Shown here: piece by piece, positions 11,100-63,522 of the stretch
How positions within the stretch are numbered: the stretch's first letter is position 1
How the letters are laid out: each line of letters starts with the position of its first letter
Assembly (NCBI GenBank): GCA_016794365.1
Contig: JAEUKB010000025.1
Span: 244,693-308,692, forward strand
Source of the DNA: Myxococcales bacterium
GTDB lineage: Bacteria > Myxococcota_A > Polyangia > Palsa-1104 > JAEUJZ01
Direction: 5' to 3'
DNA length: 64,000 bases
The notes under the pieces: model-generated
What the model saw: only the letters and a program-made list of their open reading frames with translations
Database searches by the model: none
What the model was told of the DNA's origin: nothing
Translations under genes and position numbers: made by a program

Positions 11100-12021
11100 T
11101 CGTGCGTGCGCTGCGCGGCTGCATTGAAGGACTCGGTCCGCTGTATAGCGGAACGTAGCCCAGGAACTGATTGGGACGCAGCACCATGAAGCTGCGCTGA
11201 TCGCGCAAGATCAGCGATACTTCCAGATACACACCATGACGAGCCAGCAGGGGAAACACCTGCTTGAGCAGGCGCTCGCTGGCTTCCTTGGCCCACGGCG
11301 TTCCGTTTCCGGTCACTGCATCGTCGCTGAGCAGCTTGATCGCAATGGCAGAGACAGGCACAAACGCCACGGCTCCCAGCACAGCACCACTACCAATGGA
11401 CCAGGTTCCCACTTGGATGCCGCGCGTTCGGACAGGACGCTGAAGAGTCGTGCGCGCAATCGAAACTTCCAGCTCGGGATAGAGCTGTGAAAAGACAAAG
11501 TGAACCGTAGACAGACTGCGGATTCCGAGCAAGCTGCGCAGCTGTCCCACGGTCTGGGTGAAGTCAGCAAAGAGGCTGGGATCGCGCTCTGGGAACTGTG
11601 CTTCTACGCTTCCGCGCAGCAGCCGGTGCGCAAAGAAGTTCAGAAAGTCGGTCAGCGTTCCTTCATGCTGCGCATCCAATGCGGCGCGAAAGTAGGAAGG
11701 GAGCAAGCTCTGGGAAGACAGTAGACCCAGGTTGAGCGTGACAATGACTCGTCGCTGCGGGGTCTCGGACCACTCTACTTTGGACACCACCGCAGCCTGA
11801 TGCGTCTGGGTCGCATGACTGCGGAACTCGATCTGATCGCTCTGATAGCCCAGCTCATGCAGTGCATCCAGAAGTGCTCCCAGAGAAAAGCGAACAGCTC
11901 GTTCGCTAATGATGCGTCGCTTGCGATCAAACACTGACTCTGGAACAGGAGCCGCGATTCCTGCTTGGGCGCTGCGTGGTCCTTTGACGATGTCCTTGGG
12001 CGGACGTGGTGGCTGCGGCAT
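11068..12021 (-). CDS. tssG: T6SS baseplate protein TssG (ImpH family)
   Basis: VTLNLGLLSSQSLLPSYFRAALDAQHEGTLTDFLNFFAHRLL matches the TssG core (tvnF.GL.G..g.LP..yte......dg.l.dFld.F.HR). About 317 aa. Confidence 0.7.
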   Translation of the reverse strand: MPQPPRPPKDIVKGPRSAQAGIAAPVPESVFDRKRRIISERAVRFSLGALLDALHELGYQSDQIEFRSHATQTHQAAVVSKVEWSETPQRRVIVTLNLGLLSSQSLLPSYFRAALDAQHEGTLTDFLNFFAHRLLRGSVEAQFPERDPSLFADFTQTVGQLRSLLGIRSLSTVHFVFSQLYPELEVSIARTTLQRPVRTRGIQVGTWSIGSGAVLGAVAFVPVSAIAIKLLSDDAVTGNGTPWAKEASERLLKQVFPLLARHGVYLEVSLILRDQRSFMVLRPNQFLGYVPLYSGPSPSMQPRSARTIILWSGEVPT

Positions 12022-12024
12022 GAC

Positions 12025-13485
12025 TTATCGCTCACTGTCTGCAACAAAGCGATGCACATCGGATCGACACAGGAGCCGCAGCATCTCTGTCTCGAGATCT
12101 TCGCTGGGCTTTAGGTGTGGCTCTAGCTTGCTGCTGTGCTGGATGAGCGCCAGCAGATAGTCAATCAAGAGCGTAGGAAAGTAGCGCGACGGCTCAAACC
12201 CTTGGAGCTTCTTTGCGATGTGCTGTTGCAAGATGGCGGCTCTGCGATAGCGCTGCTTGTTGACCAGCCGCACAAAGCCCGCCAGTTCTGCGAGCAGTAG
12301 CTTCAGCTCTGACCCGAGCGGAATGCTGAGCGTCTCTGCGGCATGACTGGATGGAGCAAGCGCGCTCGGAGCAGCTGCTGGATCCGCTGCCGATGCGGTG
12401 GTCAGCACTTGTGGTACAGGCGATGTACTTGCTTTGTGCGGATCGGCTGCGGATGCATCTACGCTGTCATCATCGCTGTCATCATCGCTGTCATCATCGC
12501 TGTCATCATCATCGCTACGACTTTCCGGTTCGGCTGACTGGTCGCTTCGGCTGTCTTCCGGTTCAGAGTCTTCTTCCTCTTCCTCTTCCTCTTCCTCTTC
12601 CTCATCGCGGGCTGCGTCTTCTTCGTCCGCATCGGTATTGTCTCTTGACTTCGTCTCTGCATCATCGGAGTCCTCGTCCGATTCCTCGTCCGACTTGTCA
12701 TCGTCATCTGAATCGTCATCGGAATCATCATCGGAATCGTCGTCGGAATCGTCATCGGAGTCATCATCTGAATCGTCATCGGAATCATCATCGGAGTCAT
12801 CATCGGAGTCATCATCGGAGTCATCATCGGAGTCATCATCGGAATCATCATCCTTCTTGGGCTCGTCGTCTTCTCCAGGTGGTGGCGGCGGAGCAGGAAT
12901 CTGCGTGGCTCCTTTCAGATCCCAGCCCGCGTTGGCTGCGGGCGCTTGCGCAAGTCCCTGTAGGAGCGATTGAAGGTGGAGCAGCGGCTGCTTGCTGCGT
13001 GAGCCCGGAATGAACTGATCCAGCGTCTCTAACAGCTTGTTGCAGTGCTCCAGAGCTTGCGCTTGCGCGGCATGCTGCCAGTCATGATTCCACTTGGTCC
13101 ACAGCTCATCTTTTTGACGTTCATGAAAGCGAACCTGCGACACGATGCTGTCAAACAGCCAGCGCAGCGAGACATCCAGATGGCGTTCTTTTTTGATCGT
13201 TGGACTCAGGTACGCAAGGTTGTCTGCGATGGCGCGACGAATGCATTCAAACAGCAGACTGAGCGACGCAACACCTCGCTCGACAAACACGCCGAACAGA
13301 TAGCAGCCGATCGTGCGGACATCGTAGATCTGCTGCTGCCAGAGCTTTTGGGCGCGCTCTGCTGCGGGAAGATAGCGATTCTGACTGGTCAGAGACAGGA
13401 TCTCATCCAGCTCGCGATCTTCGATCCCCAACTCGCGCTTTCCCGGCGCTGAGAGGATCTGCTCAAGTGGCTCCGTAACGATCAT
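12025..13485 (-). CDS. TssA-like (ImpA_N-like N-terminus) protein with giant poly-acidic (DDDS)n/(E)n insert
   Basis: The N-terminal EPLEQILSAPGKRELGIEDRELDEI resembles the ImpA_N motif LL.PIS...P.G.DL..D.EF. The central ~130 aa are DSDDDSDDD... and E12. The C-terminus is helical. Tightly linked to tssG. Confidence 0.35.
   Translation of the reverse strand: MIVTEPLEQILSAPGKRELGIEDRELDEILSLTSQNRYLPAAERAQKLWQQQIYDVRTIGCYLFGVFVERGVASLSLLFECIRRAIADNLAYLSPTIKKERHLDVSLRWLFDSIVSQVRFHERQKDELWTKWNHDWQHAAQAQALEHCNKLLETLDQFIPGSRSKQPLLHLQSLLQGLAQAPAANAGWDLKGATQIPAPPPPPGEDDEPKKDDDSDDDSDDDSDDDSDDDSDDDSDDDSDDDSDDDSDDDSDDDSDDDSDDDDKSDEESDEDSDDAETKSRDNTDADEEDAARDEEEEEEEEEEEDSEPEDSRSDQSAEPESRSDDDDSDDDSDDDSDDDSVDASAADPHKASTSPVPQVLTTASAADPAAAPSALAPSSHAAETLSIPLGSELKLLLAELAGFVRLVNKQRYRRAAILQQHIAKKLQGFEPSRYFPTLLIDYLLALIQHSSKLEPHLKPSEDLETEMLRLLCRSDVHRFVADSER
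12440..12850. repeat. 12-bp tandem coding repeats (tcatcatcggag / tcatcatcgctg) plus (ttcctc)n
   Basis: Visible runs of 12-bp units at ~12459-12520 and ~12700-12850 and (ttcctc)n at ~12560-12600. They encode the poly-acidic tract on the minus strand. Confidence 0.8.
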
Positions 13486-23200: not shown

Positions 23201-26200
23201 GCGGTCCTCCCTTCTTCGCTAGCGCTGCGCTGATTCCTTGGGTCAGACTGCTGACTGTGATTCCTACAGCACTTGGCACGACGGCGTCCTTGGCCGACTT
23301 GACATCTCCTTGCATTGCGCTCTGTCCGCTCGAAGCCAGTGTCTGTTTGAGAGCTGCCTTGGCATCGCTTGCGAAGGGAATCCCAGCACTTGTGACAGCG
23401 CTTGCAGCCGTGACAGCAGAAGAGAGCCCACTTGTGGCTGCGCTCTGCGCTGTACTGCCCAACGCAGAGCTTGGTGCCGCAGACTTCGGATCACTATTGG
23501 CCAACGGAGCGCTCTTGGCTTGAGAGTCCGTCTTGGCTTGGGAATCCGTCTTGGCTTGGGAATCTGTCTTTTCTTTGGCGTCCGTCTTCGACGCTGGCGC
23601 GCTCGACTTGGAGCCTGTCTTGGTCAGCAGATCTTTCATGAACGTGACCAGCTGCTGCTGCACTTGCAGGACATTCTGTCCGTAGTTGAGTAGGCTGCTC
23701 AGCTCTGTCTCGGGCAGGACAGTCTTCGGCTTGCTGGCCATCGAAAAGGCACCCGCTGTCTCATAAGGCTGCTGACCAGGAATCATCATTCCTTGAAACA
23801 GAGAGCTCATCAGCGTCATGGTATCGATCGGATTGAGTGTGACGCTGAGTCCTTTGGAGGACGTGCCATAGGTCTTTTCCAGCACCTTCGCAAACTGCGT
23901 TCCGTAGTCTCCCGCAAACAGAGAGCCTTTCTTCTTCATCTCATCCAGCAGCGTTCCTCCCCCGCCGCCCATGCCTGCTTTGCTGCCGAGCTGATCCATT
24001 CCTGGCATTCCGCTCGCTCCGTTCATGCCAGGAACTCCACTCGCTCCGTTCATGCCAGGAATTCCGCTCGCTCCGTTCATGCCAGGAATTCCGGACATGG
24101 GACTTCCTGTCATGAAGGAAGACTCTGATCCGCCGCCCCCAAGGAGCGATGCAGTCGGATTCCCATTCATCAGCAGAGAGGCTGCTCCCGCACCAGACAG
24201 CGCAGCGTTTCCCGCCGGTAATGATGTGAGTCCGCTTCCGCCCATTCCGCCGCTGTTTGGCTGTAACGTCGCTGCTGCCGCAAACGGATTGCTCAGTCCG
24301 CCGAATCCACCGGCAGCACCAGCGAGACTTGCGACTCCTGCACCAGCTTGTGCCATGGATGATGCAGCGGAGCCACCTGAAGCGAAGCCACTGCCTGAAG
24401 CGAAGCCACTGCCTGAAGCAGAGCCACTGCCTGAAGCAGAGCCACTGCCTGAAGCTGTCGGTGCTTTGGCGGCGGAACCTCCGGTGGAAGGAGTCATTCC
24501 CGGAAGTGTTGTCAAGCTAGGAAGCGTGGCCGCAGTGGCCGTCGGATTGAATCCTTCGGTTGCAAAGAACGGACTGCCTGTGCTCAGTGCGCCGCTGCTT
24601 CCGATTGGTGACGCTCCGGTGAACGATCCGGCTCCTCCCATTCCACCTGCGGGCTGTGTACTGCTCGATCCGAGCTGCGCAGCGGAGCCACCCAATGCGG
24701 AACCCGCAGTCGATGCGGATGGCGCAGCTTGCGCAGACGATGGCATCTGTGAAGCAGACTGTGAAGCAGACTGTGATGTAGATGCAGCGGACTGTGACGC
24801 CGCAGCAGGAGATGAAGACGATGCAGAAGAGGAGCCCGAAGACTCCTGACCCGCAGCGAGTCCTCCCAGAGCGGACAGACCGCCTCCGATCAGACCCAGC
24901 GTGCCACCCAAAAAGCTGGCATCTGGGCGCAGCAGCTTGAGCGCACTCTGCGCCGCAACACCAAGCGGTCCCAGCGCGGTAAATGTCGATTGAAACGCAT
25001 AGTTTACCGCGTCATCAATTCCGCCATCATCCGCTGCACTGCCCGAACCGCTGCCCGAACCACTGCCCGAACCACTCGCAGAAGGAGTCGAAGCTCCTGG
25101 AGCAGCTGGACTTACGGACTGTGAACCAGGCGATGAACTGTTTTGTGAACTGTTTTGTGAGCCGCTCTGTGAACCGCTCTGTGAACCACTCTGTGAACCG
25201 CTCTGTGAACTTTGCGGAGAGCCAGAGCCCGTCGCACCAGGCAGTAGCTCACCCAGCAGTCCTTTGGGCAGAAGTCCTGGCAGAACCTGTCCCATGTTTG
25301 GCATCCCAAGCTGCCACTGATTGCGCAGAAGACCACCCAAGGTAAGCAGCGTATTGAGCTGCGATTCCGTCGGTGCTTCACTTCCGCCTGTGCTGCCTGC
25401 ACCCTGTCCTCCGGCCTGGCTGGTTGCTGGGGAAGGACTTGCTGGCTGGCTCTGTAGGGTGGTTCCTGGAATCGCCGCACCAGCCAGCGCTGCGGTGCCA
25501 CTGGGTGATGAGGACGGACTCTGGCCCATGCTTTGGCCCACGCTTTGGCCCATGCTTTGGCCCATGCTTTGGCCCATGCTTTGGCCCGTGCCTTGACCGA
25601 CTCCTTGTGCCGCTCCCGGTGTTGCACTCTGCGCTGTGCTCTGCGTCGAGTTCTGCGCCGGACTCTGTGCTGATCCCTGGGTCTGGCTTTGCGTTGCGCT
25701 GGCTGAAGACTTGGCATCTGCCGTCGGCAAAAAGCCCGGTGGCAGGAGAGCTGCGGCCAAGACGCCCAGCTCACTTGATGCCGACAGCAGGCTCCCGATT
25801 CCCGGCACTTGACCAAGGACAGACACAAAGCCCACTGGCCCAAGCAAGTTGGACATTCCGGTCAGTAGCTGCGGCATCAGCTGTGGAGTCAGCGCGGCAA
25901 GCTGCTTTTCATCCAGCTGGGAAATCAGGCTCTGTACAGACGGAAGATCGCTGGATCCACTGGCAGTCTTGCTGGCCCCAGATGTGCTCTGGCTGGATGT
26001 ACTGGATGGTGTACTGCCTGGACCGCTCAGGCTCTTTTGCGTACTTTGAGAGTTTTGACTACTTTGAACATTCTGACTGCTCTGATTGTTCTGATTGCTC
26101 TGAATATTTTGAGAATTTTGAACATTCTGACTGCCCTGACTCTTACTCTGGCTACTCTCACCGTTCTGGCCACTCTGGCTGCTGTTGGTACTGCTCTTTT

Positions 26201-52041: not shown

Positions 52042-52190
52042 GCGAATAACCTCCGTTTGCGGCTGAGTCACATCACACCGAGGCCGCATAACACGCGGAG
52101 TCACGACGACAATCAAGTGCGCGAGCGGATTCTGGCGCTGCGCGCGAACGGTCATACGCTCAAGCAGATTGCGTCGATTCTGAATGCTAG
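52042..52190 (+). mobile_element. ~150-bp remnant of a serine recombinase gene (~93% identical to 59021-59170)
   Basis: Encodes NLRLRLSHITPR(P/S)HN(T/A)RSHDDNQVRERIL(A/E)LRA(N/K)GHTLKQIASILN, shared with the recombinase fragment at 58.6-59.4 kb. Confidence 0.7.
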
Positions 52191-52386
52191 TGAGGAGACA
52201 GAAGGGGAATAGGAAATCACCGACGGTTTTTTCCGATTTCACGACAACCGGTTGCGCAGATAGCGCACCCGTGGGCGCTCTACGCGCGCTGCTGTGGAGC
52301 CGCCTCCGGTCATGAAGGGAGAGCGTCGTCTCCTCGAACTCCGTTCATCCCAGCATCGACCTTCGGGGAATGAGAAGCTGTAGGGA

Positions 52387-52731
52387 TTAGACCAGCGTGA
52401 AGATTTGCTGCGACTTCGACATCAGTGACGGATCGCCCGAGACCCGCATTCTGCCGCTAAAATAAAGCTGTGAGCCGACCTGCGGGTCGCCATTCCAGAT
52501 GACGAAGTCCTCGCTGGATACAGTGATGGTACACCCCGCCTCGGGCAGTATCCCTTGGCTGATTTTCGGAGCGGACGAAGCGAGGTGAACGGTCCACTCT
52601 CCACCTCCCTCCCCGCTGATCTTGAAAGCGTGGATTCCACCGATTGCACAGGCATCGGCAGGACGTGCAGCAAGGGCGGCAGGAAGGAGCTGGTTGAAGA
52701 ACTGGCTTGCAGAGGTTGCTCTCGTGGTCAT
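52387..52731 (-). CDS. SCP2 sterol-carrier-like domain protein
   Basis: 114 aa. GGEWTVHL ... pattern of SCP2-like small proteins. Confidence 0.4.
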   Translation of the reverse strand: MTTRATSASQFFNQLLPAALAARPADACAIGGIHAFKISGEGGGEWTVHLASSAPKISQGILPEAGCTITVSSEDFVIWNGDPQVGSQLYFSGRMRVSGDPSLMSKSQQIFTLV

Positions 52732-53102
52732 CGGGTTCTCCTTGAGCGCTGCGTGAGGAGGTGCGGGCCCGATTGGACATCCTCTCGGCAGAACCCATCA
52801 CGGCACGCAATACGCATGACAAGTGTTGGTCTCACCGAGAAGTGTTTCCATTGGTGAAAAACCGATTGACAAGCGCCGTGAGTCGTCTTCAGCGCTGGTT
52901 CTCTGTTGAGACTCTTTCCAGGAGCGTCAGCAGTTTGATGAGATCCGCCACGTTCGCGCGCCCGGAATGCAGGCAAAAGCTCGTCGGAGCATCTGCATTG
53001 GGCTACTCGCGAGCAGTCCGAGCAGCCGAGTCAGCTCAGGACTTGGGTTGCACCAAGACGACAGGTAAGCCCCGTCGCGCAATCGTCTGTCGCTTGGTCT
53101 GC

Positions 53103-54110
53103 TCAGCGGACCAGCGCCTTCTGTTGGCGGGCGCTGGCTCGAATTGCGGCAGCCAGCGTCGAGGACGCCGCCCGATCAATCGAAGCCGACACTTTCCCGC
53201 CAAGCCAAGTGACGCGGTCGGCAACCGATTCCAGTCGCTTCGCCAGGCGCTCGTCCCCCATCGCGCGGGCTGCGGAAATGCCAAACGCGCTGGCTGCCGC
53301 GCCGATGCCCGACACGACTGGACCGGAGTCCGCATCTTCGGCCCGCTCGACGCCCACCGGCCACTCGCGAAACCCCGTCACCAGCACGCCATCGACCAAG
53401 TAGCCCGCGACATACCGCTGCCACAGCGCCCTCGCACGCTGCGGATCGACTTCTGCCAGGTAGCGCACGGAAAAGGAAAGCGCGCAGCCTCGGGGATAGC
53501 GCCCTGAGTCCGTCACATGAGCCACTTCCGAGCGCGGCAGTCCGTCTTTGCCAGCGGAACGCTCCACGACGGTGAAGTAGCGCTGGGTGGGCTCTGTGGA
53601 AAGCGTGCCCCCATGCGCGACATCGTAGCGGTGCAGCGATGCCAGCGTCGCACTCTGATCCGCCGGCCAGCGCGCACGCACGCCAGGATAGGACGGCACA
53701 TGCGCCAGCGGCTCTGAAAGGCTCCGTCGCGCCAGCTCCACAGCGATCCGCTTATGCAGTCCCTCGTCGAGACACTTCCCCGTCCGATCCGTCGCCCCCA
53801 GCACAAGCGCCAGGTGCGAAAGCCACAGCCCGTGATTGCTATCCGGGTGCATAAGGTCCAGCGCGTTGGGCCGCGTCGCCAGCGCAAGCTCATAGGTTCG
53901 CTCAAGACAAGCCCGCGCCTCACGCGGCGACGAGGACGCCAAGCCCGCGCAAGCGTCCGCCACATTCGACAGCGCGATGATCCGAAACTCCGATTTCGTC
54001 GCGACGAAGCGACCGTTCAGAAGCAGACTGGTCACGGGCGACGGTAGCTCCGCCGGATACATGCCAAGCAGCGCAGGCAAAAGAAGCGTCGGCGGAAGCG
54101 GAAACACCAT
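53103..54110 (-). CDS. Hypothetical protein
   Basis: 335-aa ORF in the ORF track, N-terminal hydrophobic segment. No motif recognised. Confidence 0.25.
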   Translation of the reverse strand: MVFPLPPTLLLPALLGMYPAELPSPVTSLLLNGRFVATKSEFRIIALSNVADACAGLASSSPREARACLERTYELALATRPNALDLMHPDSNHGLWLSHLALVLGATDRTGKCLDEGLHKRIAVELARRSLSEPLAHVPSYPGVRARWPADQSATLASLHRYDVAHGGTLSTEPTQRYFTVVERSAGKDGLPRSEVAHVTDSGRYPRGCALSFSVRYLAEVDPQRARALWQRYVAGYLVDGVLVTGFREWPVGVERAEDADSGPVVSGIGAAASAFGISAARAMGDERLAKRLESVADRVTWLGGKVSASIDRAASSTLAAAIRASARQQKALVR

Positions 54111-54184
54111 CTGTGTTCATCATACCGGCGAATGAGCGCCGTTCACGAATGGGGACGCCTCAAGCATCGACAGAGCTACGCTAA

Positions 54185-55108
54185 TTAAGAGGCGTTTTGG
54201 CCCCAGTTGAGGGGTTCGCGGGCGGCGAGCCAGCTTGGCGGGATGCTGCTTGGGCCACTAATGAGAGCGACGATGCCTCCCACGATGGCGCAGGTGGTGT
54301 CGCGGTCGCCCAGGCCGGAGACAGTCAGCCACAGCGCCGCTTCGTAGTCGGTCGGGTGCTGGGCGACGCACCACAGCGCAAACGGCACGGTATCTTCCGA
54401 TAGGATGCGACTGCCTGACCCCAAGGCGCTGACGGCCAGGTCGATGGAGCAGCGTTTTGGCAGGGCGCGGGCCTTGTGAAGTCCCTGCTGCGTCGGGCCT
54501 GCCGGGGTATGTTCGATGGCCAGGTCGAGAAGCTGCCACCCCAGGCTCGGATGCCGAGGCAGTGTGCAAGCTCCGGCAGCAGCGATGGCGACCGCGATGG
54601 CTCCGGCCTGTCCATCGGGATGAGCGTGGGTCACGGCGGCAGAGTCGCGAGCCTGTGCAATCACCGCGACGAGGTCATCGGCAAGGTACGCCCCGAGAGG
54701 TGCCACGCGCATTGCCGCACCGTTGCCCATCGAGCCCATGCCCGAAAACGCACGGCCTGCGGCGACCTGCCACGGGGTTCCTTCCGAGATAGCGCGCAGG
54801 ATCTGGTGAGCAGTGCCACCGTAGCCGCGTCGGGGCTCACGGCAATAGCGCTCGGCGAATCGGCTCGCCAAGCGGTCCTTGTCGATGTGTCCCGCATGCT
54901 GGAGAACCTCGACCACGGCCAGCGCCATTTCGGTGTCATCAGTGTAGTACCAAGGCGATGGTGGCAGCGTTCGCACGGACCGAGCGAGTTGCAAGACCTG
55001 AGCAGGGCCAAAAAAGCACTCACCAAAGGCATCGCCGACTGAGAGTCCCATAAGGGCCAGGCGGGCACGCTCCATCCGTTCAGGATGATCGGGTCGCATT
55101 GTTTCCAT
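54185..55108 (-). CDS. ADP-ribosylglycohydrolase family protein (DraG/ARH-like)
   Basis: LALMGLSVGDAFGECFF, YYTDDTEMALAV, GMGSMGNGAAMRVAPLGAY. Start taken at METMRPD. Confidence 0.7.
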   Translation of the reverse strand: METMRPDHPERMERARLALMGLSVGDAFGECFFGPAQVLQLARSVRTLPPSPWYYTDDTEMALAVVEVLQHAGHIDKDRLASRFAERYCREPRRGYGGTAHQILRAISEGTPWQVAAGRAFSGMGSMGNGAAMRVAPLGAYLADDLVAVIAQARDSAAVTHAHPDGQAGAIAVAIAAAGACTLPRHPSLGWQLLDLAIEHTPAGPTQQGLHKARALPKRCSIDLAVSALGSGSRILSEDTVPFALWCVAQHPTDYEAALWLTVSGLGDRDTTCAIVGGIVALISGPSSIPPSWLAAREPLNWGQNAS

Positions 55109-55539
55109 TATCTCACGCCCGGCCAGCAGAAGTTTGGGGTTAGAGCCGCAGCGGACGCACTGCTCCAAGCGTATCCAGAATTTCTGTACTGGCATGCGAC
55201 TCGGTGAGTTAGGGACGGCGGTCGGAGTGCGTCCGTAGCCCATTCGCCTGCTTGCTCGGGGGGTCGGAACAAGAATGCAGATTGACTCCGGTTCGGAAAG
55301 TGTTCCTGGGCAGCTTCTCACATCGTCCCTGAACGCGAACGTGCAGCCGTCGAAGGGAATCCCTGCGGCGCACCGCACGCATAACACCCAAGATCGCTCG
55401 CGATCGGGCCGTTGGTGGGCAGAGGCACCACGCTGTCTGCATCCAGCGACTTGAGCAGTGACTTGCGTAGCGTCTGGTCCGAGGCACTCGGTTCACATCG
55501 CGCATGCGCCGAATAAGCCGACCCCCATTCCGTTCAGGG

Positions 55540-56037
55540 TCAGCAGGCTGGCGATAGAGAAAACTCGCGATAGAAGACATCGATCAACAGCGCATATACG
55601 CGCCGGTTTGGACGAAAGCGCGCGAAGAAAGCTTGGTCGTCTCCACATAGGACGTTGGAGAGGGCCGCTGCGACGCCGGGGGAACGGCTCAATCCGGCGC
55701 TGCAGTGCAGTACGATGCAGCGCAACTTCGTGCGCAAGGGAAGGATGAAGCGCCAGATCTGTCTTGCATCATCACGGGAAAACAGACCCTCTGGACCGTC
55801 TTCCTCTGCTGAAAGATCGCTGTCGAAAAACGCGAGACGTAGAACGCCCAAGCAGTGCGCAGAAGGAGGAATCCGTGCCTCATCGAAGGGGCTGGTGGTG
55901 ATCGACACCACGACGAACGGAACATCAGGCATCGCTGCGGATTCCATTGCTTTGCGGCTGTGAATGACAAAGTCCACGGACTCGTGCTGCGGTTCCATCA
56001 CGGATTCCTTTTCAGACAAGATACGCCCAAGCGACAT
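55540..56037 (-). CDS. Protein-tyrosine/dual-specificity phosphatase-like protein
   Basis: CX5R P-loop VLHCSAGLSRSPGVAAAL. Start codon uncertain (55998 or 56037). Confidence 0.55.
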   Translation of the reverse strand: MSLGRILSEKESVMEPQHESVDFVIHSRKAMESAAMPDVPFVVVSITTSPFDEARIPPSAHCLGVLRLAFFDSDLSAEEDGPEGLFSRDDARQIWRFILPLRTKLRCIVLHCSAGLSRSPGVAAALSNVLCGDDQAFFARFRPNRRVYALLIDVFYREFSLSPAC

Positions 56038-56142
56038 CAGATCGGAGCGCAACCATCGACCGACCCGCGACGACGCAGCGCTGCTCCAGACAAACAACCG
56101 TTCGCAACTTCGCCCTTTGCAGAGGGTAAGAGGGTAAAACTG

Positions 56143-56670
56143 TTAAGGGTTAGACCGCACAATACGAAAGCCGAGGCTGTAGATGCGATTCGTAGGCGCG
56201 TAGTAGTCGCGCTCCGCAACGCGCGCGTACGCCGCATTGTAGTATATGGCACCGCCACGCATTACACGGTTCGTTCCTGTCGATGGTCCTATCGGATCGC
56301 TCGATGGCAGCGCTTCATAGTTCCCCTGATACCAATCCCACACCCACTCCCATACATTCCCGCTTAGATCGTACAGTCCTCTTCCGTTCGCCGTCTTCGT
56401 CTTCACTTCGTGCGTCGTGTTTCCTGAGTTCCCGCTGTGCCATGCCACAGCGTCTGGACTGTCTGCCCCCGCATACACCGTCCGAGGCGGACTCGCGGGG
56501 TTCGCTGCGTATTCCCACTCCGCTTCCGTTGGCAGCCGGTATCCCGTACATTTCACTCCGTCTGCCCATCCCACCGTCGTTCCATTGATTTGATAGCACG
56601 GCGGAAGGTTCTCTTTCACCGACAGCGCGTTGCAGTACGTCACTGCATCAAACCAGCTCACTTGCTCCAC
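56143..56670 (-). pseudogene. C-terminal fragment of a formylglycine-generating-enzyme (FGE/SUMF1) domain gene; N-terminus missing
   Basis: SWFDAVTYCNALS, GYRLPTEAEWEYAA, GNVWEWVWDWY, RVMRGGA. The upstream ~100 aa of the domain are absent and the frame closes at the intron boundary. Confidence 0.6.
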
Positions 56671-56689
56671 AGGAAGATCGTCTCCCTTA

Positions 56690-58610
56690 AAACTGGAGGG
56701 ACTACTTGTGCCACGAAGCTGAACCGAGGTCGTGACCTTGAAACAGCATGCTGCACAGTTGATGAGGGAAGGCCCCTCGGAGTCGGGGAGCAGGCCCAGG
56801 CTCCAAACCGCCCGGAGCTGCGCGAGGGTAACAGCTCGCGTGGTGAGCGTCCGTGGAAAAGTCGAGCATCAAGCTCGGCAGGTGACGCCCCAGAAGACGA
56901 ACGCAAGTAAACCGCCGATGAGGTGTCGAAATCGAATTGTAGATGCCATCGAAACCGGGCTTCTTAGTCTGGCCCGGGACTCAGTCGAGGAGGAGCCTGT
57001 GTTCTGCCTCGACGGTGGCCGGCATAGAGGCCACTGTGCAGAACGTGGGAACCTAGCGCGGGGATGCCAAGGGAGAATCGCAAGGGGGCACAAGACACCC
57101 TCAAGCGAGAGAGTACCGATGTCCAGCGCAGGGACGGATCCGCTTGTAGTAGCGATGAAGCCTGCGAAAGCCGGTGGAGCGAAGGGGCGGACATGTCCAA
57201 GCCGAAGGAGTTGGCCAACTCGGCCCGATGGGACGAGGAGGAGCCGATGACGGAGGCAAAGCCATATTCGATTGGGAAGGTGGAGGTGTGGGAGGCGTAC
57301 AAGCGGGTGAAGGCGAATCGCGGAGCGGCTGGGGTAGACCAGCAGTCGCTGGCGGAGTTCGACCAGAATCTGCGGGGAAACCTGTACAAGATCTGGAATC
57401 GGATGTCTTCGGGGAGCTACCTACCCCCGTCGGTGAGGCGAGTTAAGATTCCCAAGAAGGGAGGCGGCATCCGGCCTCTCGGAGTCCCGACAGTCGCGGA
57501 TCGAATCGCGCAGACGGTCGTGGCGAAACGGATTGAGGAGAAGGTGGAGGGAATCTTCCATCCAGACTCCTACGCGTATCGCCCGAACAAGAGCGCGCTC
57601 GACGCAGTTGGGAAGGCGAGAGAGCGATGCTGGAGACATTCCTGGGTGATCGACCTGGACATCCGCGCCTTCTTTGACAGCCTCGATTGGGAACTGCTGA
57701 TGAAGGCGGTTTCTGTGCATGTCAAAGAGGCGTGGATGCTGCTGTACATAAAGCGCTGGCTGATGGCTCCGGCTATCGGCAGCGACGGCGTAGAGCAGTC
57801 ACGGTCCAGCGGGACGCCGCAAGGTGGCGTGGTAAGTCCAGTGCTCGCAAATCTGTTTCTGCACTACGCGTTCGATGCGTGGATGAAGCGGACGTATCCC
57901 GAGATTCCGTTCGAGAGATACGCCGATGACATCGTCATTCACTGCGCGAGTGAAGATCAGGCAAAGAGCGTGCTGGATGCGGTGAGACAGAGACTGAAGG
58001 AATGCCGACTGGAACTGTCCGAACAGAAGACAAAAATCGTCTACTGCCGAGACAGCAACCGCAAAGGGAAGTATGAGCAAGTATGCTTCGATTTCCTGGG
58101 CTACACCTTCCGTCCTCGTCGAGCGCAGAGCCACAGCGGGAACCGACTCTGGAGCTTCCTGCCCGCGATCAGCAGTGCTGCGGCCAAGCGAATCCGGCAG
58201 ACGGTGCGAGGGTGGCACATCCCATCCCGAGCGCACAAAACGCTGGAGGAGATGGCGCCGTGGATCGACCCCGCCGTACGCGGATGGATGAACTACTACG
58301 GGCGGTATTGCCGCTCGGAGTGTGTTCGGGTGTTGCGGTACATCAACCTGGAGCTGGCGAAGTGGGCGCGGAAAAAGTACAAGAACCTCCGCAAACACGA
58401 CCGTCGGTCAGAGCACTATCTTGGGCGTCTGTCACGAAGACGCCCAGACCTGTTAGCGCTCTGGAAACTCGGGGTGTATGGCCGGTGTATGCACCAACCG
58501 AAATGGCAAGGACATGAAGAGCCGTATGAGCCGAGAGGTTCAAGTACGGTTCTGTGAGAGCGTGCGGGTGCGATTCCCGTGCGCTACTCGACGCCGTTCG
58601 ATCAAGCACT
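56690..58610 (+). mobile_element. Group II intron (boundaries approximate) with intron-encoded RT/maturase
   Basis: The IEP ORF carries RT motifs. Domain V gagccgtatgagccgagaggttcaagtacggttct lies at 58519-58553, matching the GAGCcGUAUG...CGUACGGUUC consensus. The 5' end is placed ~500 nt upstream of the IEP start. Confidence 0.55.
57193..58557 (+). CDS. Group II intron reverse transcriptase/maturase
   Basis: RVKIPKKGGGIRPLGVPTVADRIAQ (RT1/2), SYAYRPNKSALDAV, YADDIVIHC (RT5 YADD), C-terminal maturase/X domain WMNYYGRY. Confidence 0.85.
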   Translation: MSKPKELANSARWDEEEPMTEAKPYSIGKVEVWEAYKRVKANRGAAGVDQQSLAEFDQNLRGNLYKIWNRMSSGSYLPPSVRRVKIPKKGGGIRPLGVPTVADRIAQTVVAKRIEEKVEGIFHPDSYAYRPNKSALDAVGKARERCWRHSWVIDLDIRAFFDSLDWELLMKAVSVHVKEAWMLLYIKRWLMAPAIGSDGVEQSRSSGTPQGGVVSPVLANLFLHYAFDAWMKRTYPEIPFERYADDIVIHCASEDQAKSVLDAVRQRLKECRLELSEQKTKIVYCRDSNRKGKYEQVCFDFLGYTFRPRRAQSHSGNRLWSFLPAISSAAAKRIRQTVRGWHIPSRAHKTLEEMAPWIDPAVRGWMNYYGRYCRSECVRVLRYINLELAKWARKKYKNLRKHDRRSEHYLGRLSRRRPDLLALWKLGVYGRCMHQPKWQGHEEPYEPRGSSTVL

Positions 58611-59431
58611 TCTGCGAACTGTATGAAACGTACTTCAAAGACGGGACGAAGGAACTGATTGCGATTCGGGAATCGATCCGGCTTGACTCGTCGCTAGGAC
58701 GAGCGCTGGTGGGAATCCTCTTGGTGTTCGCACAGATGGAACGGGAAGCGACAGGAGAGCGTACGAAGGAAGCGATTTCTTATATTAGGCGCAGTGGATA
58801 TCACTTTGGAAAGGTGCCCTATGGGAAGCGCGCGGTCGCTGCGCCGGACCATCCAAAGCGCAAGATTCTCGTCGAGAATGAAGCGGAACAGAGCGTCATC
58901 GCGCAGCTTCAGGAGTGGGCGCAGACTGGTGTGAAAGTGACGGAGATGGCGCGGCGACTGAACGCGAAGGGAGTGCTTCCGCCGCAAGGAAAGGAGTGGA
59001 CGAAGAGCCTGGTCTACAACCTCCGTTTGCGGCTGAGTCACATCACGCCGAGGTCGCACAACGCGCGGAGTCACGACGACAATCAGGTGCGCGAGCGGAT
59101 TCTGGAGCTGCGCGCGAAGGGTCATACGCTCAAGCAGATTGCGTCGATTCTGAACGAACAGGGATGGCTTCCGCTCAAGGGTCGCTGCTTTACGGAGCGG
59201 AGTGTGCATGGACTCCTCCGATCGAGTGACGCCACGAAGATTCTGAGTCCCAGACAGTATTTGCAGATGATGCTGACGAAGATGGAACGCGCGCACGCAG
59301 CGGAGAATCCAAAGGAACCGTTCGAGAGTCCGAGTCTTGCGGAGTTAGCGAAGCTGCTCGACGAGGCAGGATACAAGACGCCGAGAGGAAAGGAACACTG
59401 GTGGCCTGCGCAAGTGGCGCAGGTGATGTAA
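58600..59431 (+). pseudogene. Serine recombinase (large resolvase/invertase type) lacking its N-terminal catalytic region; 5' end replaced by the group II intron
   Basis: SIRLDSSLGRALVGILLVFAQMEREATGERTKEAISYIRRSGYHFGKVPYG is the end of the catalytic domain plus the recombinase domain. No catalytic Ser region is present. Confidence 0.55.
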
Positions 59432-59662
59432 GGGCGGTTTGAGGGGTATTATCGAACACAACATGGCGAGGCTGCTCAGTTCGACTGAAGGGCTGGCTTC
59501 GCCGTGGAGCAAATTGCACCCGCTAAGTCGAGAGTTCGCCAGCGTAAGATACCAACCGCGGCGCAGTGCAGAAAGAACCCGAACCGTACTGACTGAATTG
59601 AATGTGCGTCTTTCGCCCGAGGACGAATTGACATCAGCCAGTTAATAGGATTATGTTCCGGC

Positions 59663-60016
59663 ATGGTTTGTTCCTCACCTACAATGTCCAGGGCAAGCGT
59701 GAGTCGGGTACCACATCCGCTAGTACTACAACTATTTTTAGTATTTTCCTTTACGGGAATCTCTTTAGCTGAACCACAATCAGCAAGTCAATTTTGTCAA
59801 GCAGCCAAGAAGCAGACCGCACAGAAGTCCAAGATAGGTAGAGTATTTGGCTTCGTGGAGAAGAGCACCGAGGACTCAGCACAGGCTTCGCTTAATGGTA
59901 ATTGGTTAGAGTTCCCAGATCTGGGAACGCTTCGCAAGATGGCTAGGGGCAGCGCCATCTACGAAACCGCCGAAGTCTGGACGCTCCCCTCTGGAATCTT
60001 GTTCGTCAGCATGTAG
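59663..60016 (+). CDS. Small secreted hypothetical protein in an AT-rich island
   Basis: Signal-like HPLVLQLFLVFSFTGISLA. Local GC is visibly far below the window average. Confidence 0.3.
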   Translation: MVCSSPTMSRASVSRVPHPLVLQLFLVFSFTGISLAEPQSASQFCQAAKKQTAQKSKIGRVFGFVEKSTEDSAQASLNGNWLEFPDLGTLRKMARGSAIYETAEVWTLPSGILFVSM

Positions 60017-60088
60017 CTGACAAGTTCATCGGGGGACTGGAGTAACTTCATCGACTACTGCTACAGGCCTAATGGCTCCTTAGCTTGG

Positions 60089-60328
60089 ATGGAGTCAGAC
60101 TATCGTTTTTTGCCAGGTGAAGGCATTCGTCGTATACGAACACGAGTGTTTTCCCTCGATGGTAAAGTATCATCACAAGATATTCGATTTATTCATCTTA
60201 GCACTGGTAAGCCGACAACCAACGCTCGGTTAGTTATGGATTATGAGAACCCAGTGTACCTTACACCAACCCATCTTCCTTTTACGTCCCAACTTGCAAC
60301 TGTTTATGATAATCAGCGAGCACACTGA
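60089..60328 (+). CDS. Small hypothetical protein in the same AT-rich island
   Basis: ORF in the ORF track in a low-GC region. No motif. Confidence 0.2.
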   Translation: MESDYRFLPGEGIRRIRTRVFSLDGKVSSQDIRFIHLSTGKPTTNARLVMDYENPVYLTPTHLPFTSQLATVYDNQRAH

Positions 60329-60405
60329 TGAAGCGAGTTTTTCTAGCTAGCTAGCTGGCTTCCTATCCTTGGTCTTATTGGAGTGTAAGCGTACCCAACG
60401 AGGAA

Positions 60406-61611
60406 CTACCGTCTTCGACCCGAGCCGCGCGTATGGGAGCGAACATAGGTTCCATCCCTTCGGGTGTAGGAATGGACATACACAGAGCCGCCGGAACCCC
60501 GCTGACGACCACCGCTGCCGCCCCCAACCGACCCGGCATCCACGTCATCTGAATCCGCCGAGGACTGGGCTTGGCGTCGCTCGTCGGCCTTGCGCAGTGA
60601 ATCCGCTTTCTTCGACAGAGCTATCGCTGTGGCCGAAAATGGTGAGTTCGGCGGAACGTGGGCCAGATGGGCGGTGGCGAGTACGTAGGCTCGTTCCTTG
60701 ATGGCAGACCGAGCAGCGCTCAGCCGCAGCAGCGCTGCGCGACGTTGCCACTTTTTCTGAAGCGAGTCTGCCAGGGGTCGTTCGGGGGTGTCGGTGGGTA
60801 TCTTCTGAAGATGGTCATCGGCAGCTTCCAGTCGTTGGAAGATGGTGTCATCCGTGGCCAAGTCGACTTCTTTCTGAGCTGCCGCAAGGCGTTCGCTTGC
60901 TTCCCGCTGCCGCCAAGTCCGAATCAACTCTTCTCCGATGGCATGCTCCGGCACACTTGCGGGAATCTTGCGAAGCATGTCCCTGGCAAGGCCCAGACGT
61001 CGAAAAATGTCCTCACCTGTACCCGATTCCACCTCGTGCTCCGCAGCGAGGATCAACGCACGAGCGGGCCTTGATGCACATTCCAAGAGGAGTGCGTTCG
61101 CCAACGGAGCTTCTGATGCCGAACCGGGGATGGCTCGAAGGTGGCACTCAGCGAGCGTGAGCTGTCCTCCTGTACGAGTTGCGGCATCGAAGCCCTCGTC
61201 CATGGCGGTTCGCGCTGCGTCCAAGTGACCTGCCGACGACATCGCCCGAAACTTGGCCTCAGCGGCTTCCTGCTCTGCCGCCGCCCGTGCGACCGCCGCA
61301 GCCTGATCGCTACGCTTCTTGGCTTCAGACCATCCGGCGGCCAGTCCTAAACCCGTCAATCCTAGCGCAGTAAGAACCATTCCCATTCGTGACCGTGCGA
61401 CACGGCTGACCTTCGCAATGGGCGAGTCTGCCGCGGCGAAGAAGCCACCGATGATGACGACAACAGCCCCGATACAGCCCAGCGTGAGGAGAAGTCGAAA
61501 GGCCAGGCTCTCGGTCGACAGCGCGCCCACCGCGCCAACGTAAAACACGAGTGCAAGCGCAATCAGCCACGGCGAGACTTTGCGAGAAGAACGTCTTCGC
61601 GAACGACCCAT
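60406..61611 (-). CDS. Membrane-anchored hypothetical protein (3 N-terminal TM, long helical periplasmic/cytoplasmic region)
   Basis: Hydropathy of the translated ORF. Arg-rich N-terminus and Gly/Arg-rich C-terminus. Confidence 0.35.
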   Translation of the reverse strand: MGRSRRRSSRKVSPWLIALALVFYVGAVGALSTESLAFRLLLTLGCIGAVVVIIGGFFAAADSPIAKVSRVARSRMGMVLTALGLTGLGLAAGWSEAKKRSDQAAAVARAAAEQEAAEAKFRAMSSAGHLDAARTAMDEGFDAATRTGGQLTLAECHLRAIPGSASEAPLANALLLECASRPARALILAAEHEVESGTGEDIFRRLGLARDMLRKIPASVPEHAIGEELIRTWRQREASERLAAAQKEVDLATDDTIFQRLEAADDHLQKIPTDTPERPLADSLQKKWQRRAALLRLSAARSAIKERAYVLATAHLAHVPPNSPFSATAIALSKKADSLRKADERRQAQSSADSDDVDAGSVGGGSGGRQRGSGGSVYVHSYTRRDGTYVRSHTRGSGRRR

Positions 61612-61813: not shown

Positions 61814-63064
61814 TCAGGCCCGACCGGCCTCGCGACGCTGGATCAGAAGCCAACACAGTCCTGCCGCAACCAACGTCCAAGTCGCCAGCACCGCAAAATA
61901 GCTCGTTGGCGTTGTCCTGTCCCAATAGCTTCCAGCGATCCCGCCGAGCCAGAAGCCGAGTGCTTGAGCAGCGAACGACAGTCCGATTGTAAACCCAGCC
62001 CGATGCGACGGGACCGTGGTGGCAGCCAGCGCCAGTCCCGAAGGCAGCACTAGCATTTCACCTATCGTCAGACCGAGCTTGCCGCTGAGAAGCCATAGCG
62101 CGCTGACGGGATGAGCGCCAGCTATGAACGCGGCGAGCACCATCACTCCGTATCCAGCGGCCATGAGAAGGAGGCCGATGCGCAGCTTGAGTGAGTCCGA
62201 CGGCTCTCGGTTGTGGCGCTGCATCGATCGCCACACTGCCGACAGGACAGGCGTCAGAATTATCACGATGAGCGATGGAACCGATGCAAAGAGGTCGGGC
62301 GGGATCTGATATGAGCCAATGTTCCTGCGGGTGTGATCGCGAGCCCAGAGCAGCAGCGTCCCCGCACTCTGCGAAAAAGCCAATCCCAGCATCGCGAGCG
62401 CAAGCATCACTCCGATCAGAGCCAGCAGGCGTGGACCTTCGGAATGCCGATTCGGCGCAGAATCCACGGGATCTATGTGCGTCGGCGTCGTGCGCACCGA
62501 GGAACCCCCGATTAGAAGCGAAAGCAGTCCCAGCAGTGCAGCAGCGGTTGCCGTTGCAAAAGCGTTCGCCCAGCCAAACTGGGTACGCAGCAGACCTCCA
62601 ACGATTGGGGCCGTGAAGCCAGCGAGGTTGACCGTCAGATAAAACCAGCCAAAGCCGCTGCTGCGACGAGGATCTCCTGGTTCATAGATCGCGGAGAGCA
62701 GCGCCGTCACCGAAGGCTTGAATAGGCCATTCCCCCCAATCAGCAGAGCCGCCGCGAGTAAGCTCCCCGTTCGCGACTCCAGCGACAGCAGTGCCAGGCC
62801 GATGACCAGTGCGAGCAGACCGGACACCACAGACCGACGGTAGCCGATTCGATCGGCCAGCAAGCCACCACCGATCGCTGCCAAATAGCCGAGCGCCTGC
62901 CAGTACCCAGCAGCTCGTGCCGCATCACCATCAGATAGTTGCCACCGATCGCCTAGGTACAAGACCAGTAGCGACGACAGAAGGAATCCCGCGAACCGCT
63001 CGCAGAACTCAACCACACAGATCGCAACAAGACCGGACGGCTGACGCAAAAGTGCCGAGGACAT
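61814..63064 (-). CDS. MFS transporter, proton-dependent oligopeptide (POT/PTR2)-like
   Basis: N-terminal EFCERFAGFLLSSLLVLYL...GYWQALGYLAAIGGGLLADRIGYRRSV resembles the POT signature region. About 12 TM. Start at MSSALL. Confidence 0.55.
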   Translation of the reverse strand: MSSALLRQPSGLVAICVVEFCERFAGFLLSSLLVLYLGDRWQLSDGDAARAAGYWQALGYLAAIGGGLLADRIGYRRSVVSGLLALVIGLALLSLESRTGSLLAAALLIGGNGLFKPSVTALLSAIYEPGDPRRSSGFGWFYLTVNLAGFTAPIVGGLLRTQFGWANAFATATAAALLGLLSLLIGGSSVRTTPTHIDPVDSAPNRHSEGPRLLALIGVMLALAMLGLAFSQSAGTLLLWARDHTRRNIGSYQIPPDLFASVPSLIVIILTPVLSAVWRSMQRHNREPSDSLKLRIGLLLMAAGYGVMVLAAFIAGAHPVSALWLLSGKLGLTIGEMLVLPSGLALAATTVPSHRAGFTIGLSFAAQALGFWLGGIAGSYWDRTTPTSYFAVLATWTLVAAGLCWLLIQRREAGRA

Positions 63065-63213
63065 GGCTCTCCCTTCCATGCGTATAGACGCACGAGCGAT
63101 GTCGGCAGTGCGCGCGCTCCCGCGGGCAGACGTAGCCCGAGGACATGCCTTTGATGCCCGTAGTGAAAGGTGGCATGATGCCACCGCTTCGACAGCTCGA
63201 AGAATAGTCCGCC

Positions 63214-63522
63214 ATGACCGATAGTCAACCAAAAAGTCTTAATTCAGCTCAAAAGGCCAACATTTCGCCAGGCCAGTGCCGGGCAGCTCGCGGCTTGCTC
63301 GACATCTCGCAACGTCAGCTTGCCGAGGCCGCAGGCGTCAGCCTCACCGCCATCAAGGACTTCGAGTCCAACACCCGAACCCCACGCCCCGCCACCCTGA
63401 AAGCGATCCAAGACGCCATCGAACGCGCCGGGATCATGCTCATCCCAGTAAATGGCGGCGGGGAAGGCGTAAGGCGAAGCACGTCATCTGTGTCATCAAC
63501 CAATGAAACAGAACCGAGGTAG
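63214..63522 (+). CDS. XRE-family helix-turn-helix transcriptional regulator
   Basis: LLDISQRQLAEAAGVSLTAIKDFE shows the HTH_XRE pattern. Confidence 0.6.
   Translation: MTDSQPKSLNSAQKANISPGQCRAARGLLDISQRQLAEAAGVSLTAIKDFESNTRTPRPATLKAIQDAIERAGIMLIPVNGGGEGVRRSTSSVSSTNETEPR

Follow-up and report, generated by a model that had tools for sequence, protein, structure and literature searches.

A putative class D-like group II intron joining the remnants of a serine recombinase gene and an FGE-sulfatase gene in a Polyangia bacterium

Organization of the locus

We analysed a 64,000-nucleotide stretch of DNA (the window) from a Myxococcales bacterium of the Polyangia (NCBI GenBank assembly GCA_016794365.1, contig JAEUKB010000025.1, positions 244,693 to 308,692 of the forward strand), in which a group II intron is found between the remains of two unrelated genes: an opposite-strand gene of the FGE-sulfatase (SUMF1/EgtB/PvdO) family on its 5' side and a serine recombinase gene on its 3' side. 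All positions given are those of the window, and the features are collected in Table 1. The original prediction, made from the sequence of this stretch alone, had described positions 52042-59431 as decayed mobile DNA in which the intron is wedged between two truncated genes. Decayed mobile DNA turned out to be a fair description of the region. The image of an intron wedged between truncated genes held for one side only, where the 5' junction is indeed foreign; the 3' junction is native and lies at a homing site of the intron.

Table 1. Features of the locus, with window positions and the basis of each assignment
Feature	Position	Strand	Basis
Serine recombinase relic (residues 248-293, 137 bp), from a second copy of the same family	52048-52184	+	Direct repeat of 59018-59154
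ADP-ribosylglycohydrolase gene	54185-55108 (longest open reading frame to 55387)	-	Pfam ADP_ribosyl_GH, 2.6e-58
Cys-phosphatase-like gene	55540-56097	-	DSPc, E 0.0022 (below cut-off); HCSAGLSRS (CX5R) motif
FGE-sulfatase (SUMF1/EgtB/PvdO family), C-terminal fragment	56143-56705	-	Pfam and full-length homologues
Group II intron, full-length, 1887 nt, putatively class D-like, without endonuclease domain	56706-58592	+	Rfam and independent copies at other sites
Ribozyme domain I-IV segment	56764-56883	+	RF01999 (group-II-D1D4-2), 99.8 bits against a gathering score of 36
Exon-binding site 2 (EBS2), UCGAAU	56932-56937 (intron nt 227-232)	+	Covaries with 5' exon positions -14 to -9 in 11 independent copies
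Exon-binding site 1 (EBS1), UUAGUC, in a hairpin loop	56964-56969 (intron nt 259-264)	+	Covaries with 5' exon positions -6 to -1 in independent copies
Intron-encoded reverse transcriptase/maturase	57247-58557 (longest open reading frame starts at 57064)	+	RVT_1, GIIM, TIGR04416
Domains V/VI	58517-58592	+	RF00029, 60.6 bits against a gathering score of 40
Domain V	58519-58552	+	RF00029 alignment
Domain VI, bulged branch-point A at 58586	58555-58590	+	RF00029 alignment
Serine recombinase 3' exon, residues 107 to ~385	58593-59431	+	Alignment with 403-aa homologues

Identity and boundaries of the intron

Searching the whole window with Rfam at gathering thresholds gave exactly two matches, RF01999 and RF00029. 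The open reading frame (ORF) of the maturase contains RVT_1 (1.2e-43) and GIIM (1.1e-15) and no other Pfam domain, scores 409.6 bits with the NCBIfam model TIGR04416 (cut-off 300) and shows a YADD motif in its translation. Only about 50 residues follow GIIM in the Pfam alignment, which leaves no room for an endonuclease domain. With RF01999, RF00029, RVT_1, GIIM and TIGR04416 in agreement, the proposed group II intron was confirmed; domain V, which had been placed at 58519-58553, was also recovered, with its end corrected to 58552. Two outcomes had been named in advance as damaging to the original prediction, namely a lack of Rfam support for domains V/VI and unrelatedness of the two recombinase pieces of the region. 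We looked for both and observed neither.

Homologous introns were gathered via their encoded proteins. Copies with other flanks share 77% (L002), 81% (L003-L008) and 92% (L157) identity with the window intron, and each of them aligns with positions 56707-58592 and no further. Since homology to copies at other insertion sites stops there, the intron ends were set at 56706 and 58592. The 3' end reads ...CUACUCGAC. At the 5' end the window has UUGUG where relatives have GUGYG, and positions 2-5 fit. The first base is G in L002, L003-L008 and L157 (GUGUGCC or GUGCGCC), and in all G was seen in at least eight copies. We observed T at this otherwise near-invariant position in the window (56706), in L001 (position 396) and in L120, which are copies in the same recombinase family; L001 has a perfect 5' exon despite this T. 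From nucleotide 1 onwards the window intron is colinear with full-length relatives, except for a 21-nt deletion at 57028/57029. This deletion is common to the window and the strain contig L093; the distal part of a long hairpin is gone and a perfect stem is left. Besides, an 11-nt tandem duplication (58473-58483), seen in the window alone and not in L093, swaps the last eight residues of the maturase for a 27-residue tail that reads into domain V.

The intron is probably class D-like. Its maturase shares 58% identity with intron proteins of 419 aa that occur in multiple copies in replicons of Sinorhizobium meliloti, and the sequence LGRLSRRRPDLLALW in the maturase C-terminus keeps 5 of the 8 fixed positions of the class D motif LX3AX3PXLF[V/A]HW (PMC4615759). 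The sites EBS1 and EBS2 were located by comparing 11 independent copies, in which they covary with the 5' exons, and base pairs were counted by script. For example, EBS1 is CCAGUC, UGUCAU, CGUUGU and AGUCGU in copies whose exons carry GACUGG, AUGAUA, AUAAUG and ACGACU, respectively. Similarly, the EBS2 sequences UAGAAU, AGCAAU and GCAUAU are paired with the exon sequences GUUCUA, AUUGCU and AUAUGC.

Native 3' junction in a serine recombinase gene

In an alignment of the recombinase ORF with 403-aa homologues, identity begins at ...RSIKHFCELYE, and residues 1-106, with the RVSTD catalytic serine region, have no counterpart. These residues were not found anywhere in the 64-kb window by tblastn. 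The Pfam Resolvase profile is matched at positions 77-143 of 145 only, followed by Recombinase (PF07508, 3.5e-16) and HTH_62 (PF20552, 9.7e-08); intact homologues carry all three domains. At the other end a premature TAA (59429-59431) closes the frame, and residual homology extends to ~59482-59497 in tblastn and tblastx. The expected absence of the catalytic N-terminus was thus verified, and the ORF is a gene fragment and not a functional serine recombinase gene. A search with this fragment returned hundreds of proteins of ~400 aa with Resolvase and Recombinase domains, among which the few organism-named matches were all from Polyangia/Myxococcota. The best NCBIfam similarities were to CcrB and XisF, with all scores far under the cut-offs (95 against 900).

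The position of the intron in this gene could be read from an uninterrupted homologue. L009 (protein P0001) is 93% identical to the window at the nucleotide level, its homology to the window starts exactly at 58593, and across the insertion point (marked here and below by a slash) it reads ...TTCGACAGGTTGA/GCCGTTCG, also given as ...TTCGACAGGTTGA/GCCGTTCGATC. An 87.5% identical intron is located at the same position, behind an intact 5' exon, in the wastewater contig L001 and its JGI twin L120, and splicing of the L001 intron would restore ...DRLSRSIKHF.... Three further serine recombinases, all of them distant, have related introns at the equivalent position (L106, L114 and L157). Pairing of the cognate recombinase exon with the window intron is complete, at 6/6 with EBS1 and 6/6 with EBS2, G·U wobbles included. 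Because related introns interrupt recombinases at the same position, the DRL/SRS codons of the recombinase are a cognate homing site of this intron lineage, and the 3' junction (58592/58593) is a native splice junction. The lineage as a whole (L105-L156 and L158, comprising metagenome and S. meliloti copies) sits in conserved-motif codons of other mobile-element enzymes, including DRL/xRS in at least four different serine recombinases, DNA/xxESF in an IS3-type transposase, and the reverse transcriptase YADD motif of another retroelement ORF.

Foreign 5' junction in an FGE-sulfatase gene

On the other side of the intron, the ORF at 56143-56670 (minus strand) matches the FGE-sulfatase Pfam profile at positions 94-255 of 255, as anticipated for the headless fragment that had been proposed on this strand. 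Full-length homologues (291-358 aa) align with it up to SSPSSFKGDD... (56703-56706), and the 18 residues that adjoin this homology are translated intron, unaligned with FGE homologues. The fragment lacks the N-terminal 105-145 residues, and its truncated end abuts the intron 5' end; the missing N-terminus was not found anywhere in the 64-kb window by tblastn. Within the fragment, RGGAIYY occurs where the aligned homologues have RGG(S/A)W, a stretch that is replaced in both the window and L093. This ORF, too, is a gene fragment, with an incomplete FGE-sulfatase domain. An NCBI FGE fragment, P0241, is 99% identical to it. The closest full-length homologue, P0242 on contig L159, lies in an array of a kinase and three FGE genes; it was considered as a possible empty site and rejected, being a paralogue. 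In L159 (2192-5820) the three FGE-domain genes form a tandem array downstream of a Ser/Thr kinase and a TPR protein.

The 5' junction is chimeric, with foreign DNA joined at the first nucleotide of the intron, give or take one or two bases. All other inspected copies with both flanks readable have cognate exons on both sides, so that the chimera must be secondary to insertion in the recombinase gene. The placement of the foreign junction at the first intron nucleotide points to an intron-linked rearrangement and not to independent truncations. These comparisons show retrohoming of a class D-like, endonuclease-less intron into DRL/SRS of a ~403-aa recombinase gene, and a later loss of the recombinase 5' exon that left the first intron nucleotide joined inside the opposite-strand FGE-sulfatase gene. 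Two simpler histories were also considered. Insertion of the intron after a deletion had already fused the FGE remnant to the recombinase fragment was rejected, as this deletion must have ended exactly at the natural insertion position. Simple insertion of the intron together with its 3' exon into the FGE gene, with both FGE halves kept nearby, was argued against by the missing halves, which tblastn did not find in the window.

Possible origin of the chimeric junction

We found that the FGE flank resembles an intron target. In ...GGAGGGACUAC, the candidate intron-binding site 1 (IBS1), GACUAC, pairs at 5/6 positions with EBS1, all of them Watson-Crick, and IBS2 pairs with EBS2 at 4/6 positions in the window and at 5/6 in strain L093. 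This pairing equals that of the genuine sites L106, L133 and L140. An equal or better match occurred at 1.3% of positions for the window flank and at 0.26% for the L093 flank, the background being both strands of the window with three IBS2 registers allowed. Since the pairing of the FGE flank with both exon-binding sites is roughly on a par with that of genuine sites, the explanation that we favour is an ectopic insertion in the FGE gene and subsequent recombination of two intron copies; we give this explanation as a whole an even chance of being right. The first step would be ectopic retrotransposition, in which a sister copy of the intron reverse-spliced into the antisense strand of the FGE gene at its IBS1/IBS2-like site. 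The two copies would then have undergone homologous recombination, producing one intron with its 5' flank from one site and its 3' flank from the other; copies in direct orientation would yield a deletion, and inverted copies an inversion with the reciprocal product elsewhere in the genome. The outcome would be a stranded intron and two dead gene halves, still patched by gene conversion from intact paralogues. Ectopic insertion at IBS-like sites and genome instability via recombination between intron copies have been described for RmInt1, which is also endonuclease-less (PMC5894124), and chimeric exons joined exactly at an intron site have been ascribed to homologous recombination between intron copies (PMC7947834).

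Several observations weigh against the ectopic insertion and recombination of two copies. Position -1 of the FGE flank (C) is unpaired with EBS1, and the IBS statistic concerns a single site and was calculated after the junction had been seen. Neither an intron copy within an intact FGE gene nor a reciprocal junction turned up, the source genome lying outside the search, and none of the 52 JGI metagenome copies recovered in a scan with the intron 3' end was FGE-flanked. Comparison with L157 and L001 gave no mosaic or crossover signal inside the intron; with two nearly identical copies, no such signal would be expected. Finally, T56706 is ambiguous, as it agrees with a G1-to-U intron like that of L001 and at the same time completes a serine codon of FGE. 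The FGE paralogue P0242 has ...ACTGCT/TCC at this place, and the possible microhomology of 1-2 nt suits an end-joining event.

Such an event forms the main rival, aberrant retrohoming with end-joining, which we consider possible, if unlikely. It supposes that the intron 3' end was ligated properly into the recombinase target by reverse splicing of a linear intron or in an incomplete reaction, that non-homologous end joining or microhomology-mediated repair then connected the complementary DNA or the 5' end with a DNA break in FGE, and that the 5' exon, everything between and the intron G1 were lost. NHEJ (non-homologous end joining) leaves small truncations or additions at the 5' junctions of linear-intron retrohoming. 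In favour of end-joining, the junction lies at most 1-2 nt from the intron 5' end, a G is missing at intron position 1, both T56706 and T56707 are compatible with FGE sequence (as in P0242), and the intron protein lacks an endonuclease domain. The T in place of G1 at the otherwise intact junction of L001 could also have been left by the reverse transcriptase through non-templated addition; given the perfect 5' exon, however, it is more simply an inherited G-to-U mutation. One or two bases of microhomology count for little as evidence, and the likeness of the FGE flank to IBS1/IBS2 (P 0.003-0.013) must, under end-joining, be a coincidence. In a broader form, which we regard as quite doubtful, the FGE-intron junction may record a non-canonical integration of a group II intron that took place naturally in a bacterium. 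Either a linear or G1-defective intron may have retrohomed and had its 5' end joined to a distant break, or the 3' exon may have been carried over along with the intron. The T for G1 in the window and in L001 would then be a scar of non-templated addition. To our knowledge, 5'-junction repair of such an end-joined intron integration has been shown only in experimental systems.

Strain comparison and gene conversion

Six metagenome contigs (L090-L095) were 97-99% identical to the window and had both junctions the same. Two of them, L090 and L092 (99% identical), lack 593 bp (52311-52903) including an SCP2-like gene (52387-52731, minus strand); this segment has no flanking repeats and looks like a simple indel. 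L094 is 97% identical to the window rightwards from 54263, and leftwards it continues into unrelated high-G+C sequence with a different ORF; the break falls in the 3'-terminal part of the ADP-ribosylglycohydrolase gene. The 593-bp indel and the switch of context at 54263 among strains that are 97-99% identical indicate a structurally unstable region. They would suit an intron-independent deletion or illegitimate recombination that by chance took away the recombinase 5' exon as far as the intron boundary and fused this boundary to a truncated FGE gene. It is improbable that a chance breakpoint would fall no more than 1-2 nt from the start of a 1887-nt intron, and the flank is IBS-like; we consider this explanation highly improbable.

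Sequence divergence between the window and L093 is unevenly distributed. The ADP-ribosylglycohydrolase gene, the phosphatase-like gene and the intron ORF differ by ~1%, and clusters of differences were found at 56100-56300 (37 differences, FGE C-terminus), 56600-56750 (16) and 58500-59000 (27). Over the 300 bp of 58693-58992, no difference separates the L093 recombinase piece from the intact L009, and the window differs from L009 at 18 sites. As the differences are clustered and the L093 tract is identical to L009, this pattern indicates that the FGE and recombinase fragments have probably been patched by gene conversion from intact paralogues. Gene conversion also explains, without any function, the low ratio of nonsynonymous to synonymous polymorphism (pN/pS) of the recombinase piece, which is 0.12 between the strains. 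This value, together with the open frame at 58478-59431, might otherwise suggest that expression starts at an intron-internal ATG (58478) and yields a headless recombinase, reduced to its DNA-binding domains, that has been retained to act as a regulator or decoy. We think this extremely improbable: the low pN/pS is accounted for by the converted tract, which does not differ from intact L009, both strains have the premature stop (TAA at 59429 in the window and in L093), and the first 38 residues encoded by the ORF come from ribozyme sequence.

The 137-bp repeat and the neighbouring genes

The original prediction also included a duplicated piece of the recombinase, ~150 bp long and ~93% identical, at 52042-52190, and suggested that the recombinase remnants might bracket an integrated element. 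The duplicate is present, with its size and identity revised to 137 bp and 130/137 (95%). The two copies are 6970 bp apart. A tblastn search with P0001 recovered residues 248-293 from the upstream copy (E 2.9e-22), and no further recombinase or intron homology was found near 52048-52184. Compared with the window recombinase piece, the upstream copy has 7 differences, of which 4 are amino-acid-changing; its differences from L093 and from L009 also number 7 each. The upstream copy is best interpreted as the last relic of another copy of the recombinase family and not as an element border.

In the alternative, 52048-59431 would represent a single integrated element that has decayed, with the recombinase remnants marking its two ends. 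Such an arrangement is suggested by the direct orientation of the two pieces over their 6970-bp spacing, by a G+C content of 0.48-0.68 across 53-60.5 kb, by intact family members that stand beside defence or accessory genes in the three neighbourhoods examined, and by L012, where an ADP-ribosylglycohydrolase gene is likewise paired with a decayed recombinase copy. Against these points, the repeat is an internal coding stretch and not an att site, with no other flanking homology, and the upstream copy is placed and oriented like a separate gene relic. Strain breakpoints (52311-52903 and 54263) do not coincide with the repeats, and serine-integrase elements are not built with one recombinase gene per end. 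No att-type repeats were found at the locus; its only repeat, of 137 bp, is internal to the recombinase coding sequence. Neither the strain contigs nor the 80 best genome-contig loci retrieved with the ADP-ribosylglycohydrolase gene contained an empty site, and none of the 80 was syntenic. The idea of a bracketed element was not upheld, and we judge it very unlikely.

Both genes reported between the two recombinase pieces were examined. The ADP-ribosylglycohydrolase assignment is solid, and the gene described as a Tyr-phosphatase has a sub-threshold DSPc match and a CX5R motif only. L012 (Polyangia MAG_MBR_AS.52), the closest species-level/GTDB genome, shares with the window only the ADP-ribosylglycohydrolase gene (91% nucleotide and 94% protein identity); of the 80 genome-contig loci it is the only one to have this gene in common with the window. 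Convergent to this gene, at 11837-12431 (minus strand), L012 has a different decayed recombinase copy comprising residues 1-200 and 331-362; it shows frameshifts and an internal deletion of about residues 201-330.

The neighbourhoods of intact recombinase family members were also inspected. At least two members occur on one 1-Mb Polyangia contig, and many metagenome contigs of the family are just 1.3-1.8 kb. Three neighbourhoods contained, respectively, GmrSD, ParE and AAA_15; DndB; and NACHT/NB-ARC alongside the recombinase. Because intact members thus adjoin defence or accessory genes, an island-integrase role of the family is plausible. Eight contigs carrying recombinase P0032 were compared for element ends and proved to be all the same locus. 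A scan of viral contigs with the recombinase gave one 54% match on a 4-kb contig and otherwise generic serine recombinases, and we see no evidence in these sequences that would suggest a prophage at the locus. PADLOC gave no matches among the neighbouring genes or the recombinase.

Several other features of the window were noted. G+C content is 0.48-0.50 at 59600-60500, directly downstream of the recombinase fragment, compared with 0.56-0.68 around it, and the small ORFs of this segment have no family matches. Downstream of the recombinase, at a distance of 2.4-4.7 kb and on the opposite strand, a POT/PTR2-type MFS transporter is encoded in the window (61814-63232) and also in L096 (11892-13124), where it is next to the intact homologue P0013; the two transporters are ~35-40% identical, and their shared position may be a coincidence. 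Tandem repeat arrays with 12-, 18- and 27-nt units, e.g. (ATCGTCATCGGA)n, occur at 12442-12879, 23997-24455 and 25507-26146 and presumably are low-complexity coding repeats.

Discussion

The closest parallels of the window intron are RmInt1, RmInt2 and Sr.md.I1 of Sinorhizobium, endonuclease-less introns of ORF class D and structural class IIB. Their proteins, like that of the window intron, consist of reverse transcriptase and maturase only (~410-436 aa), and an S. meliloti copy has the same 5' sequence GUGUGCCACGAA. Like the window intron, this group homes into genes of other mobile elements, and it has also been found at ectopic IBS-like sites, e.g. oxi1 (PMC5894124). The class D C-terminal motif of the group (PMC4615759) is partly kept in the window intron. 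However, the window intron differs in its target (DRL/SRS codons of serine recombinases instead of an IS630-type transposase), in its host (a Polyangia/Myxococcota lineage), and in having U1 for G1, the 21-nt hairpin deletion and an altered protein tail.

A second parallel is offered by Ll.LtrB and Ef.PcfG in relaxase genes (PMC7947834). These introns likewise interrupt the codons of a conserved catalytic-domain motif in a mobile-element enzyme, and in them, as in the window, exons of different origin meet exactly at the intron. In that case, however, the shuffled exons are orthologous and their product is functional, whereas the flanks in the window belong to unrelated opposite-strand genes, both dead. 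In addition, Ll.LtrB has an endonuclease domain, which the window intron lacks. For Wolbachia, Leclercq et al. (2011), as cited in PMC7947834 and PMC5894124, described deletions and rearrangements by recombination between dispersed intron copies, the process proposed here. According to these citations, that work compared whole genomes in which both partners are visible, whereas one product only is seen in the window. Regarding the recombinase, its intact homologues share the Resolvase, Recombinase and HTH_62 domains of large and medium serine recombinases (CcrB, XisF and invertase-like proteins), but at ~400 aa they are shorter than typical large serine integrases, and the window copy is without the catalytic domain.

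Overall, the locus is ordinary mobile-DNA wreckage, and the one feature that is mildly out of the ordinary is its 5' junction, which is exact and non-cognate and has an IBS-like flank. For annotation this means that the recombinase and SUMF1-family ORFs are dead halves that should not be counted as functional genes, and that the intron marks the point of a rearrangement. Current concepts are unchanged by the locus, which provides a clean natural example of two known behaviours, homing into catalytic-motif codons and the occurrence of an intron with non-cognate flanks. Discovery of the reciprocal junction would make the locus a documented case of intron-driven genome rearrangement in myxobacteria.

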